From: an uncultured Clostridia bacterium
GTDB taxonomy: Bacteria; Bacillota; Clostridia; Christensenellales; UBA1242
Assembly: GCA_947625955.1 (NCBI GenBank)
Contig: CANQQH010000002.1
Coordinates: forward strand, 1 to 33,645
Length of the DNA stretch: 33,645 nt
Direction of reading: 5' to 3'
Below the pieces are notes generated by a model. That model was not told the DNA's origin and searched no databases. It worked only from the letters and a program-made list of their open reading frames with translations. Of the stretch, positions 22,940 through 29,885 are shown piece by piece; position 1 is the stretch's first letter, and each line of letters opens with the position of its first letter. The translations under genes and the position numbers were made by a program.

Positions 22940-23725
22940 CTAATCAAGTCGTGGTTTTGCAAGCGTGTAGAATTTGTCAATGATTTCGCAAAATTCTTTT
23001 GGAAGTTTATTTCTAGCCTGCTGTTTTAGATCTTGGTCAATCCCAAACAACGCTTCTGCCATACTTCCAACAATGCACGCGTTTGTGTCGGTGTCGCCGC
23101 CGAAATATATCGCTTTTTTGATGGCTTCTTCAAACGAATTTGAACTAAATAACGCAAACAAGCAGACATCGATTGTTTCGTGGCAAGTCAAATTGAAGTG
23201 CGTTAACCTAGGCTTTTTGATTTTCAGTTTCAGCTTGTCCATAATTTCTTCTTTCGAAAGACCCTGCCTTGCATAGAAGATGATCAGCGCAATCGTCGTG
23301 GCGCACGAAATCGCTTCCTCTGTGTTGTGCGACGGGATTGTGCAAAGCCGCGCGTTCTTGACAACCTCTTCTTCGCTTTCAAAGAAATTCCCAACCGGTG
23401 AAATTCGCATCATTGCCCCGTTACCCGCACTATTTCCGTCGGCCTTTCCTTTCGCCCAATTCGTGAAGTTTGGCGAGAACATCGACTTGAAATATGGAAT
23501 ACCCTTTGGTATTTTTTCGTCAAATTCGAGTGCATACTCCCTGAGCTTTTTCTCGTAGCTTTGCTTGTTTATAATCGCGTCGGCAACAGCAACTGTGAGA
23601 ATAGAATCATCGCTGAAAAACGCATCGTCCTCAATGATCTTTCCAATCTTCACCTTGCAATGGCGGCTCACCTGCCCAAACTCATAGACCGACCCCGCCA
23701 AATCTCCAATAATCGCCCCAAACAT
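22940..23725 (-). CDS. ADP-ribosylglycohydrolase family protein
   Basis: GAIIGDLAGS.YEF, FSDDS, SAGNGAMMR.SP, SHN, GGDTDTNACI.GS.AEA. Confidence 0.92.
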   Translation of the reverse strand: MFGAIIGDLAGSVYEFGQVSRHCKVKIGKIIEDDAFFSDDSILTVAVADAIINKQSYEKKLREYALEFDEKIPKGIPYFKSMFSPNFTNWAKGKADGNSAGNGAMMRISPVGNFFESEEEVVKNARLCTIPSHNTEEAISCATTIALIIFYARQGLSKEEIMDKLKLKIKKPRLTHFNLTCHETIDVCLFALFSSNSFEEAIKKAIYFGGDTDTNACIVGSMAEALFGIDQDLKQQARNKLPKEFCEIIDKFYTLAKPRLD

Positions 23726-23903
23726 TTCCTCTCCTTTCATTTCCATTATACCACCTTCTCCCCTTTCTTCCAAACCTTTCTCGCAAGAAATCACAATATA
23801 AGCGCCACCTCAAACTTCAAGTATTGCTTTTTATACAAATAATTGATTTGATTTGAAATTTGTTATATTAAAGATTTAATTTAAGAAATTAATTATTCAT
23901 ATT

Positions 23904-25074
23904 GGTTAAGTTCCTTTTTGATTCTTGATATGGTATAATTTCATTTGAAAAGACAATTGGATTAATCCAGTTTTAGTTCCCTATTGGATTTTGGTATGGT
24001 ATAATTTATTCCGACGAGGATTGGTTGCATGATAAGTTTTAGTTCCCTATTGGATTTTGGTATGGTATAATTCTGTTAAGAAACATGAAGCCCTTATCAA
24101 GTGTTTTAGTTCCCTATTGGATTTTGGTATGGTATAATATTGAAAGTTAAGCCTGCGTCACCGCAATTGTTTTAGTTCCCTATTGGATTTTGGTATGGTA
24201 TAATCCGCGCGGGCGGCATTCTTGACGATAGCATGTTTTAGTTCCCTATTGGATTTTGGTATGGTATAATTCTTGTATTTGACAAAATGTCATACAGATA
24301 GTTTTAGTTCCCTATTGGATTTTGGTATGGTATAATTTTTGCGCAGCTCTTTCATATCGTTTGACAGTTTTAGTTCCCTATTGGATTTTGGTATGGTATA
24401 ATAGTTTTTCTCGCCACTGTGTCATCTAGTGAGTTTTAGTTCCCTATTGGATTTTGGTATGGTATAATGGAAACTAAAATAGAGTGAACAGGATTATAAC
24501 CCAACCATAGGTTTTAGTTCCCTATTGGATTTTGGTATGGTATAATTAAAAGGCTCAGTTTTTGCATGGATTAAAAGTTTTAGTTCCCTATTGGATTTTG
24601 GTATGGTATAATAAAAGCAACAAGCCCCAATAAATTAGGACAGTTTTAGTTCCCTATTGGATTTTGGTATGGTATAATAACCATCAAGTGAAAAAGCATA
24701 ACCGTCTTGTTTTAGTTCCCTATTGGATTTTGGTATGGTATAATTTTAACTCCATGATGGATTTTTTCAGCTCAGTTTTAGTTCCCTATTGGATTTTGGT
24801 ATGGTATAATTAGCGTTTTCACTGGCAAATTGATACCTAAGTTTTAGTTCCCTATTGGATTTTGGTATGGTATAATAGGGCGGTCGCACGGAGGTTAAAA
24901 ATTATGGTTTTAGTTCCCTATTGGATTTTGGTATGGTATAATTGGAGCAATTTCCTCACCACAAGAAAGATAGTTTTAGTTCCCTATTGGATTTTGGTAT
25001 GGTATAATCAATAATCGATATTATATATACGGCAAAAAGTTTTAGTTCCCTATTGGATTTTGGTATGGTATAAT
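23904..25074 (+). CRISPR. Type II-C CRISPR array: 17 identical 36-nt repeats (23970-25074) plus 1 degenerate repeat (23904-23939), 17 spacers
   Basis: Repeat GTTTTAGTTCCCTATTGGATTTTGGTATGGTATAAT. Spacers are 30 nt except one of 31 nt (24072-24102) and one of 42 nt (24469-24510). + orientation inferred from the GTTTTAG start, the terminal -10 box and tracrRNA complementarity. Confidence 0.98.
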
Positions 25075-25088
25075 AGGCAACTAAAAAC

Positions 25089-25131
25089 AAAGAGTTCAAC
25101 ATTCGATATTTTCGTTCGTTGAACTCTTTTT
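25089..25131. terminator. Hairpin/terminator between array and cas2
   Basis: AAAGAGTTCAAC / GTTGAACTCTTT 12-bp stem ending in a T run. Confidence 0.65.
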
Positions 25132-25155
25132 CATTATAATGATTTTTTCGAAATT

Positions 25156-25476
25156 TTAGAAAAAACTTAATTGATTGCTTTCAACTTTTTTCTCTTTTTT
25201 CAAAGGAACACCAGTTAAAATCTTCATTGAGGAATATTGTTTTTCAGTCACAATCATAGAGCGCACTGAACCTGTTTTGGGAACTTTTACCGCAACTCTG
25301 TCCTGATGCAGTTGAGCTGATTCCAACGTGTTGCACACTCTTCCATAGAGGCTATATTGTATCATATAGAAGCCATCTTTTATCAAAAAGTTCCTAAATT
25401 GTGTTGCCTCTTTTCTTTCAACAGCAGTCACAACGGGCAAATCAAAAAAGACCAAGATTCTCATAACTCTACTCAT
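25156..25476 (-). CDS. cas2: CRISPR-associated endonuclease Cas2
   Basis: MRILVFFDLPV...FRNFLIKDGFYMIQYSLY; overlaps the cas1 stop. Confidence 0.95.
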   Translation of the reverse strand: MSRVMRILVFFDLPVVTAVERKEATQFRNFLIKDGFYMIQYSLYGRVCNTLESAQLHQDRVAVKVPKTGSVRSMIVTEKQYSSMKILTGVPLKKEKKVESNQLSFF

Positions 25477-26359
25477 ACTTGTGCACATTGAGCCCAACAA
25501 TTTTGATTTGTTTTATTTCTCTCTTATTTGTTTTCAAACATTCCAAAAAACTCTCAACATAAATATCGATCGCGTTTGAGAGCGTTTGCATTTTACCATC
25601 AACTTCAACGTCTATATTAATTATATTATAAATCCGTGTTTTTATCTCGGTTGTGACAGCAGTTTCTTTATCAAGATAAATTTTCACAAACAAGTCCACA
25701 ATTGGCCTAAATGGTTCCATCAGATCATCTGCCAAATTAAATTGGTTGAACTGATTTGAATGTTTTATTCCCCAAAACGGCATGAGGCCATGCACAACTA
25801 TACTTCGCGCAACAAATCCGCGTATGATTGCATAACCATAGTTCAAAAATGCATTGATAATGTTATCGTTCCTACGCTTGAAGTCTTTGTTAAACAATTC
25901 TTTGAAATAAATTTGACTTGCTGTTGCTTCAACGTTGCTGCTATCATCACTCAGCACACTATCAGCCAAATTTTTGAGTTTGTCATTCCCGCCACAGATA
26001 TTCAAGACTTCGTTTTGATTCCTAATTTTATTTTTTACAACATTTTGCCATAGTTGTTTTATCAATGGTTTGCTTGCACCAATTTGATGGTTGTAGTTCA
26101 AAATATTATAATGTTGGCAATATGGCAGCAACACGCCACAGGGCAAGTGTTTTTCGTCGCAAACAAAGACCAAAACACCGTTCTGCGCAAACTGAGAAAG
26201 AGTGTAATTTGAAATGCTTCCACTCATATTTTCTATCATAACGCTATTAATGTCTTCAAGTGGATAATCGTTTTGCTGTTCTGAGTTTTTCAAAAACACC
26301 TGGTTGTTCTTTATGTTTATATGCGCTTCATTGCCCACAAAAATATTAATATAACCCAT
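25469..26359 (-). CDS. cas1: CRISPR-associated endonuclease Cas1 (type II)
   Basis: CDEKHLP, NAFLNYGYAIIR, GIKHSNQFNQFNLADDLMEPFRP. Confidence 0.96.
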   Translation of the reverse strand: MGYINIFVGNEAHINIKNNQVFLKNSEQQNDYPLEDINSVMIENMSGSISNYTLSQFAQNGVLVFVCDEKHLPCGVLLPYCQHYNILNYNHQIGASKPLIKQLWQNVVKNKIRNQNEVLNICGGNDKLKNLADSVLSDDSSNVEATASQIYFKELFNKDFKRRNDNIINAFLNYGYAIIRGFVARSIVVHGLMPFWGIKHSNQFNQFNLADDLMEPFRPIVDLFVKIYLDKETAVTTEIKTRIYNIINIDVEVDGKMQTLSNAIDIYVESFLECLKTNKREIKQIKIVGLNVHKYE

Positions 26360-29790: not shown

Positions 29791-29885
29791 CAAAAAGACC
29801 ACCTTCTCAGGTGATCACTTACTGGATGGGCTTTCGCCCACCATTATTTTAGTAACCTATTGAACTTTGGTATGGTATAAGTTAC
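29791..29885 (-). ncRNA. tracrRNA
   Basis: Anti-repeat at 29846-29880 (+ strand ATTTTAGTAACCTATTGAACTTTGGTATGGTATAA), hairpin TGGTGGGC-GAAA-GCCCATCCA, terminator GATCACCT-GAGA-AGGTGGTC-T5. Ends are approximate. Confidence 0.9.

Follow-up and report, generated by a model that had tools for sequence, protein, structure and literature searches.

The acquisition end of a type II-C array

We asked whether the leader that follows the last repeat of this CRISPR array could, by folding back onto that repeat, influence how the newest crRNA is made. The window, by which we mean the whole stretch of 33,645 nt that was analysed, carries genes matched by the NCBIfam models for cas9, cas1 and cas2 (Table 1), the sole cas genes of the locus. 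The Csn2 and Cas4 families had no match in the four flanking ORFs tested; judged from its genes, the locus is therefore of type II-C (cas9-cas1-cas2, minus strand). By the ORF list, the gap between cas2 and the array has no space for an extra cas gene. Scanned against Rfam, the full window gave no hit at or above a family's gathering score.

Table 1. Features of the CRISPR-Cas locus, in window positions
Feature	Position	Strand	Remarks
Degenerate oldest ('extra') repeat	23904..23939	+	8/36 positions off consensus; -10 box intact
CRISPR array, 17 identical 36-nt repeats	23970..25074	+	from sequence
Penultimate repeat	24973..25008	+	from sequence; predicted internal promoter
Newest spacer	25009..25038	+	from sequence
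Leader-adjacent (newest) repeat	25039..25074	+	5' arm 25040-25054, loop 25055-25071, last 3 bases = start of 3' arm
Leader element, 12 nt, anti-repeat-like	25075..25086	+	forms the 3' arm jointly with 25072-25074
Putative intrinsic terminator hairpin	25089..25131	+	12-bp stem with inner stem-loop, T run; RNAfold
cas2	25156..25476	-	TIGR01573, 74.3 bits; start codon by eye
cas1 (type II)	25469..26359	-	TIGR03639, 274.7 bits
cas9, 1119 aa	26359..29718	-	TIGR01865, 775 bits
Canonical tracrRNA	29791..29885	-	34-nt anti-repeat, nexus-like stem-loop, terminator; ends inferred from promoter and terminator

The 16 spacers of the array are 30-31 nt long, except for one of 42 nt, and the 3' end of all 17 repeats is an extended -10 box. 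Because the tracrRNA is complementary to the plus-strand repeat, the crRNAs would be plus-strand RNAs read toward cas2, and the degenerate repeat places the old end of the array at the other side. In type II-C systems, new spacers are acquired at the repeat that comes last in transcription order (PMC12080349, PMC8092290, PMC12477760). We therefore regard the stretch after position 25074 as the leader and the repeat next to it as the newest. Transcription toward the acquisition end is predicted from the 17 -10 boxes, from the complementarity between plus-strand repeat and tracrRNA and from the degenerate repeat at the far end. A search for RNA runs covering 24700-25500 found none. The original prediction of a type II-C array growing at its 3' end is supported, and the leader helix described below sits at the acquisition (leader) end. 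DNA contigs from four runs over 23800-25500 broke at the repeats and were uninformative on which array end varies between samples. In the II-C array of N. meningitidis the transcription start is the 6th base of the spacer (PMC12477760); here the newest crRNA would start at about position 25014, from the promoter of the penultimate repeat. The 42-nt spacer opens with 11-12 nt that resemble the leader (likeness by Hamming distance; the MAFFT alignment was poor).

Newest repeat and leader are able to fold onto each other. As had been predicted, 14 of the 15 bases in 25040-25054 find their complement in 25072-25086, and the sole mismatch sets C25048 against C25078; the first three bases of the 3' arm are the repeat's own last three, and the loop comprises 17 nt. 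RNAfold of 25009-25131 returned this helix together with a second hairpin (MFE -31.2 kcal/mol, z = -4.97), and none of 200 dinucleotide shuffles folded as well. When the first 25 leader bases were shuffled, a match to any 15-mer with at most one mismatch appeared in 7 of 20,000 shuffles, and in the same 15-mer test the array's own 16 spacers had 4-9 mismatches against the repeat at best. A chance origin of the pairing is ruled out by the fold z-score, the leader shuffles, the spacer controls and the controls from related arrays (see below). By its position, the helix would lie within the stretch transcribed by read-through from the repeat promoters.

The hairpin with a 12-bp stem and a U run, the second part of the original prediction, starts 2 nt past the leader helix; its stem pairs 25089-25100 with 25118-25129, and the T run reaches to 25131. 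It has the stem-loop and U run of an intrinsic (Rho-independent) terminator, as which it is predicted from its sequence. Read on the minus strand, the same hairpin has a U-rich run after it, 25 nt past the cas2 stop; it probably ends the convergent cas operon as well and would thus be a two-way terminator.

The tracrRNA of this locus has a promoter-like site at 29920-29892, upstream of cas9 and on the strand of cas9. Its anti-repeat (29880-29846, minus strand) pairs with repeat nt 1-8 and then again from nt 11, and repeat nt 9-10 are left unpaired opposite two U. The mismatch in the leader hairpin is repeat nt 10 and falls inside this 2x2 internal loop, so that the placement seen in the original prediction proved correct. 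The trans duplex with the tracrRNA is ∼32 kcal/mol more stable than the cis hairpin (-44.7 vs -12.9 kcal/mol). The 17-nt loop of the cis hairpin remains unpaired as a toehold, and its complement is the best-conserved part of the anti-repeat in the tracrRNA.

We found a full tracrRNA in six of the seven genomes examined, upstream of cas9 in five (the window, G008, G011, G048 and G034) and on another contig in G003; G032, a genome of 84% completeness, yielded none. In G008 and G003 the leader 15-mer does not differ at all from the 3' part of the genome's own tracrRNA anti-repeat; it is one base off in G034 and two off in the window, and the internal loop has the same place in the leader stem as in the tracrRNA duplex. 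In G011 and G048 the leader helix is shaped differently from the genome's own tracrRNA duplex. Moreover, the leader element is without the promoter of a tracrRNA gene: the sole promoter upstream of it is the -10 box of the last repeat. Transcription from the 6th base past this box (the start rule of PMC12477760) would begin at about 25080, and the RNA would lose most of the element.

Leader-repeat pairing in related arrays

The original prediction had pointed to related II-C loci as the place to look for conserved complementarity and for covariation of leader and repeat. A Cas1 search of 61 related genomes gave a match in 17. The seven best Cas1 loci of these 17, with identities of 100% to 39%, carry arrays of this same type, and in all seven a short anti-repeat-like stretch stands directly after the last repeat, followed by an A-rich linker and a terminator hairpin. 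In one of these relatives the change is matched, as the repeat differs at its 4th base and the leader has the complementary base; another has an altered repeat middle and a correspondingly altered leader.

For a wider sample, one genome per species was scanned for two repeat-end motifs one period apart, which gave at least 120 stretches; flanks were taken from 80. At least 127 loci had two or more motif matches, of which 95 had at least 70 clean downstream bases, 90 were non-duplicate and 89 were used. Left out were the 32 of 127 with fewer than 70 clean downstream bases, five duplicates and L088 (repeat mis-called), as were loci L008-L018, which had other repeat types or were duplicates. Local alignments were inflated by the A-rich linker matching the T-rich repeat, and we used junction-anchored helices instead, defined as contiguous Watson-Crick helices with a 3' arm that begins anywhere from the last three bases of the repeat to leader base 4. 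As controls we used 1024 internal repeat-plus-spacer units of the same arrays.

The complementarity is conserved well above these controls. Among the matches listed, a junction helix of at least 6 pairs was present in 53 of 89 arrays (60%) compared to 72 of 1024 controls (7%), and one of at least 7 pairs in 19 of 89 compared to 19 of 1024; a perfect 6-bp helix was absent by this definition in 36 of the 89 listed arrays. The median duplex energy was -10.1 kcal/mol in the listed arrays and -7.1 kcal/mol in the controls (Mann-Whitney p = 6e-18), where the 89 loci are kin, gathered via one repeat motif and mostly from Clostridia metagenome bins, so that P values make the case look stronger than it is. 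In 68 of the 89 listed loci the fit of the leader to its own repeat exceeds its average fit to the remaining 62 repeat variants. Some leader positions are constant irrespective of the pairing register: among the matches listed, leader base 1 is A in 80 of 89 arrays and base 2 is G in 77 of 89. Leader bases 10-13 are A in 60-74 of the 89 listed arrays.

MFE folds of the listed matches gave a similar picture. Repeat nt 7-17 were paired with the leader in 35-58% of the 89 terminal units, as opposed to 9-15% of 245 internal units, while nt 21-36 were paired in 2-7% of the terminal and 8-26% of the internal units. This modelled pattern fits a design that hides the Cas9-bound half of the repeat and exposes the other half. 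Which part of the repeat is paired depends on the subclass: nt 2-16 in that of the window, nt 7-13 as a perfect helix in many arrays and nt 13-20 in a class of 25. The nt 2-16 register with its internal loop was shared, among the matches listed, by the window and eight other non-redundant arrays of its subclass.

The class of 25 arrays, which was chosen among the matches listed by a pattern in the repeat only, allowed us to follow individual base pairs. Both-sided changes occurred at three of the eight pairs in these listed arrays (A-U 13 / G-C 10; U-A 19 / C-G 2; A-U 17 / G-C 5), which is the covariation that the original prediction had asked about. Standard pairs filled 89.5% of the 200 cells of the class, compared to 25-50.5% when the 3' partner was slid by 1-3 columns, and doubly changed cells numbered 17, compared to 5.8 +/- 2.3 after shuffling, a value equalled in 0 of 500 shuffles. 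By type, the 200 cells comprised 138 Watson-Crick pairs, 41 G-U, 2 A-C and 19 other mismatches. The invariant G at the second leader base, which may be kept for another reason, accounts for 22 of the 41 G-U cells, and three of the 25 rows (L025, L034, L063) misfit the helix. One class has six matched repeat/leader variants, and such variants can be seen at once in the alignment.

In 82 of the 89 related arrays among the matches listed, a hairpin of terminator type, T run included, followed within 100 nt; the stem of these listed terminators started at a median leader nt 11, and its 5' foot was A-rich in 56. The idea that the element is just the A run of a two-way terminator was rejected, as it fails to explain the covarying bases in the class of 25.

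Outside these repeat families, a Cas1-family search of 401 genomes added four II-C-like arrays whose 36-nt repeats belong to other families. L158 has an anti-repeat-like 10-nt stretch 19 nt past the array (duplex -22 kcal/mol) and L168 a matched helix of 5-6 bp; of the other two, one has an A/T helix only and one is without a clear helix. L167 has a longer degenerate anti-repeat ∼10 nt past the array, followed by hairpins.

Possible roles of the leader element

Conservation among relatives, with compensatory changes, makes it very likely that the pairing has a function, and we take it to be most probably a working RNA helix that is joined to a two-way terminator. With moderate confidence we propose a cis RNA helix, conserved at the acquisition (3') side of the II-C array, that modulates maturation of the newest crRNA together with the probably two-way terminator. 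The sequences show the pairing with its conservation and covariation, the terminator and the tracrRNA; we infer both that the element acts as RNA and in which direction it affects the newest crRNA. In the related arrays among the matches listed, the element always stands between the last repeat and the terminator, inside the predicted read-through transcript. In addition, its register and loop size vary, which an RNA hairpin tolerates and a protein bound at fixed DNA positions would not. The abundance of G-U and rarity of A-C in the class of 25 fit a plus-strand RNA. Two further comparisons were neutral: among the 89 listed loci the plus strand folded better in 47 and the minus strand in 40, and the mismatch types in local alignments, which are noisy, were T:G plus G:T in 44 and C:A plus A:C in 36 cases among the matches listed.

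The reverse view would be that the pairing is a signal in the DNA of the leader, in which the inverted part of the repeat marks the newest repeat for Cas1-Cas2 and makes insertion polar; it could be recognised as a palindrome or as an extruded structure. We consider this possible but doubtful. The near-invariance of the first two leader bases in any register has the look of a sequence-specific anchor, and these two bases may serve the integrase. The helix is also mostly Watson-Crick and folds equally on both strands, as a palindrome would, and the leader-like start of the 42-nt spacer agrees with an integration event shifted to the element's outer edge. On the other hand, where the palindrome is centred, and how far that is from the two integration sites, changes by class with the paired register, the 41 G-U against 2 A-C cells in the class of 25 speak against a DNA signal, and a 17-nt loop is unfavourable to cruciform extrusion. 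Acquisition in type II-A requires leader bases adjacent to the repeat (PMC8092290), but in the solved II-A integrase structure the contacts to the leader do not extend past its first 4 bp, and it is the repeat's own inverted ends that are read (bioRxiv 10.1101/2025.06.12.659244). Since the known integrase contacts cover these 4 bp only, they do not explain the covariation of leader nt 3-12. Thus, an RNA role is more likely than a DNA role for the element.

Could the element instead be a leftover? A tracrRNA gene or an inverted repeat may once have stood downstream of the array, its complementarity inherited or gene-converted since, with the terminator alone at work today; we regard this as improbable. 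Anti-repeats downstream of arrays are a known position of tracrRNAs (PMC3737331), the array L167 has a degenerate anti-repeat with hairpins after it, and in some genomes the leader 15-mer is identical to the tracrRNA anti-repeat. But compensatory changes at three pairs, six matched repeat/leader variants in one class and the preference for the own over a foreign repeat in 68 of the 89 listed loci all argue against a relic. The element is also kept from 100% to 39% Cas1 identity, across which an unselected 12-nt relic would have decayed, and we know of no mechanism by which the leader would receive an inverted copy of a stretch of the repeat.

The original prediction had seen in the last transcript the layout of a single-guide RNA and had suggested, among other outcomes, that the newest spacer works independently of tracrRNA or that its RNA is processed in cis by RNase III. 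The layout holds in the window and its closest relatives (spacer, stem with the internal loop placed as in the tracrRNA duplex, stem-loop, U tract) but not in the other subclasses, in which nt 13-20 or 7-13 are paired and the lower stem, critical for Cas9, stays free. Independence of tracrRNA fits the layout of the window but not the full tracrRNA in six of seven genomes, nor the duplex energies of -44.7 and -12.9 kcal/mol. As for RNase III, stems of 8-15 bp are short for this enzyme.

In its full form, the guide reading holds that Cas9 binds newest spacer, repeat, leader anti-repeat and hairpin as a natural sgRNA without tracrRNA. It is possible for the subclass of the window only and unlikely overall, and we give it the slightest chance of any reading. 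Besides the layout of the window, it can draw on the leader 15-mer, which equals the matching part of the own tracrRNA anti-repeat in G008 and G003 and nearly does so in G034 and the window, and on the hairpin 2 nt past the duplex, a spacing that recalls the nexus of II-C tracrRNAs at 1-3 nt past (PMC6546382). However, the lower stem and bulge that Cas9 reads are not kept among relatives: the class of 25 pairs nt 13-20 only, so that the Cas9-critical lower stem and loop are unformed, and the leader helices of G011 and G048 are unlike the tracrRNA duplex. By eye, in the window and G011 loci, the leader hairpin has no sequence likeness to the tracrRNA tail. Finally, six of the seven genomes examined have a complete tracrRNA with its own promoter, and the trans duplex is the stabler by ∼32 kcal/mol. 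We give hardly more credence to a combined version, in which the 3' leader RNA of II-C arrays mirrors the leader of II-A and sets, with the terminator, the rate and amount of loading of the newest guide, while the subclass of the window yields a natural sgRNA free of tracrRNA.

Returning to the cis RNA helix as the preferred reading, we propose the following course of events. Transcripts from the repeat promoters would cross the newest spacer and the leader-adjacent repeat and run into the leader, whose first 10-15 bases would fold back onto the 5' half of the newest repeat. The fold-back would mask those repeat bases from which, with the tracrRNA, the Cas9-bound stem is made. The repeat's 3' half, whose partner is the best-conserved stretch of the anti-repeat, would remain accessible in the 17-nt loop. 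Two bases on, the intrinsic terminator would end all array transcripts before they enter cas2 in antisense, and the same hairpin would probably stop the convergent cas operon. Given the far greater stability of the tracrRNA duplex, rate is all that the helix could act on. It may delay or steer the entry of the tracrRNA, which would pair with the loop first and then displace the strand, or it may stabilise the 3' end of the newest pre-crRNA; under either option the helix would set the amount of the newest guide that is made. The masked repeat is one that serves the newest spacer; a simple block would cost immunity, and its benefit is not obvious.

Comparison with known leader hairpins and terminators

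Finally, we asked how the element relates to systems that have been described. Bidirectional intrinsic terminators occur between convergent genes, and the hairpin between the array and cas2 resembles them in that its stem contains GC and is accompanied by runs of T and of A on opposite strands. Such a terminator accounts for 25087-25131 only and not for the complementarity between 25072-25086 and the repeat. A different likeness is offered by tracr-L of S. pyogenes (Workman et al. 2021), which is reportedly a natural single-guide RNA that includes the whole tracrRNA scaffold and is aimed at one fixed site in the cas promoter. Like the RNA proposed here, tracr-L is said to join a repeat-like and an anti-repeat stretch in one transcript with a guide-like fold; the spacer here is a changing one, in contrast, and by eye no nexus is recognisable.

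Within the same subtype, the suppression of extraneous crRNAs in II-C arrays (PMC12080349) concerns the same architecture, and the window too has a mutated extra repeat at the old end. The analysis of that study covered the old end only, upstream of the array, and reports mutated extra repeats, terminators and guide-trapping hairpins there but no leader-repeat hairpin, whereas the helix described here is at the other end. Full-text searches and passages of PMC12477760, PMC8092290, PMC3737331, PMC6546382 and PMC10120712 contained no account of a helix that joins the newest repeat of II-C arrays to the 3' leader.

Leader-repeat RNA hairpins are an accepted means of tuning crRNA production, and the closest parallels are those that act on it in types II-A and VI-B (PMC12080349, PMC13187072). 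In the II-A hairpin (Liao et al. 2022, as cited in PMC12080349 and PMC13187072), the transcribed leader likewise folds onto the adjacent repeat and competes with the tracrRNA, and the element likewise stands at the acquisition end and concerns the newest spacer. In II-A, however, the leader is 5' and the masked repeat is extraneous, serving no spacer, whereas the leader here is 3' and masks a repeat on which the newest spacer depends; unlike the II-A hairpin, the helix here is also fused to a terminator, and the paired part of the repeat varies between relatives. The hairpin of VI-B and related Cas13 systems (PMC13187072) shares with it a cis leader-repeat structure that hinders access of the effector but belongs to another effector without tracrRNA, a 5' leader and an extraneous repeat. 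Thus, the conserved, above-chance leader pairing of the II-A and VI-B systems is found here as well, but with the leader at the 3' side and on a repeat that follows the newest spacer.

The leader-repeat hairpins known from these sources have a 5' leader and mask a useless repeat, and a helix on a needed repeat at the acquisition end of a II-C array is a different case. If the proposed role is true, it would bear on how II-C arrays are excised for heterologous use, on the annotation of array ends and direction, and on how tracrRNA genes may have arisen beside arrays. It would also mean that II-C systems, too, use leader RNA, to control or stabilise the newest guide rather than to remove a useless one.

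Anti-repeat-like leaders and their terminators

Among arrays of other repeat families, L158 (G274:C94) has repeats with a different -10-like end, and its leader carries an anti-repeat-like 10-mer located 19-29 nt past the array (duplex -22 kcal/mol). The leader feature thus extends beyond a single repeat family. A further array, L167 (G425:C7), is II-C-like with long repeats and a period of 76. Within the first 120 bases past this array, a longer degenerate anti-repeat lies ∼10 nt from the last repeat, ahead of two hairpins and a T run. The stretch may represent a tracrRNA that occupies the leader position, with its promoter supplied by the last repeat.

We also observed a minority leader type in four arrays (L039, L068, L072 and L105; first 70 bases past the last repeat, among the matches listed). 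In these leaders the first base of the terminator stem is leader base 1-3. The 3' arm of the stem continues into a stretch that pairs with the repeat's final five bases, which means that the -10 box is pulled into the terminator stem.

Loci closely related to the window locus

In genome G034 (arrays L006 / L018), cas1 is broken by two stop codons (one TGA and one TAA). Despite the broken cas1, the array, the leader helix and the tracrRNA are all retained. In the last three repeats of another relative, L002 (G008:C6), the newest two spacers are identical and the intervening repeat has one base change; these twin spacers, together with the changed repeat, suggest that a duplication took place recently at the array's leader end. 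In genome G003, a tracrRNA-type anti-repeat was not found beside the cas genes of the C4 locus in the adjoining stretch searched, and the one identified in this genome (L149) is listed in the table.

Features in the window and in related loci
Feature	Location	Strand	Note
cas1 with two stop codons	G034:C2:451811-452700		L006 / L018
tracrRNA-type anti-repeat of G003	G003:C2:21783-21812		contig other than that of the cas1-array locus (C4)
42-nt spacer	window 24469-24510		sole spacer of this length in the array
Leader start resembling the 42-nt spacer	window 25076-25087		2 mismatches
Degenerate oldest repeat	window 23904-23939		8/36 mismatches, all in nt 2-25; -10 box intact
Gene adjoining the array's old end	window 22940-23794	minus	weak match, ADP-ribosyl hydrolase families

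The 42-nt spacer and the old end of the window array

The first 11-12 bases of the 42-nt spacer resemble the leader start, a likeness seen in only one of the 1024 internal spacers of the 89 non-redundant related arrays (among the matches listed). The spacer length (42 = 12 + 30) would fit an integration displaced as far as the leader element's outer edge; a fossil leader would fit it as well.

At the old end, the product of the adjoining gene scored about 50 bits against ADP-ribosyl hydrolase families, far under the family cut-offs. The degenerate oldest repeat is the mutated 'extra repeat' known from II-C arrays, as described in PMC12080349.
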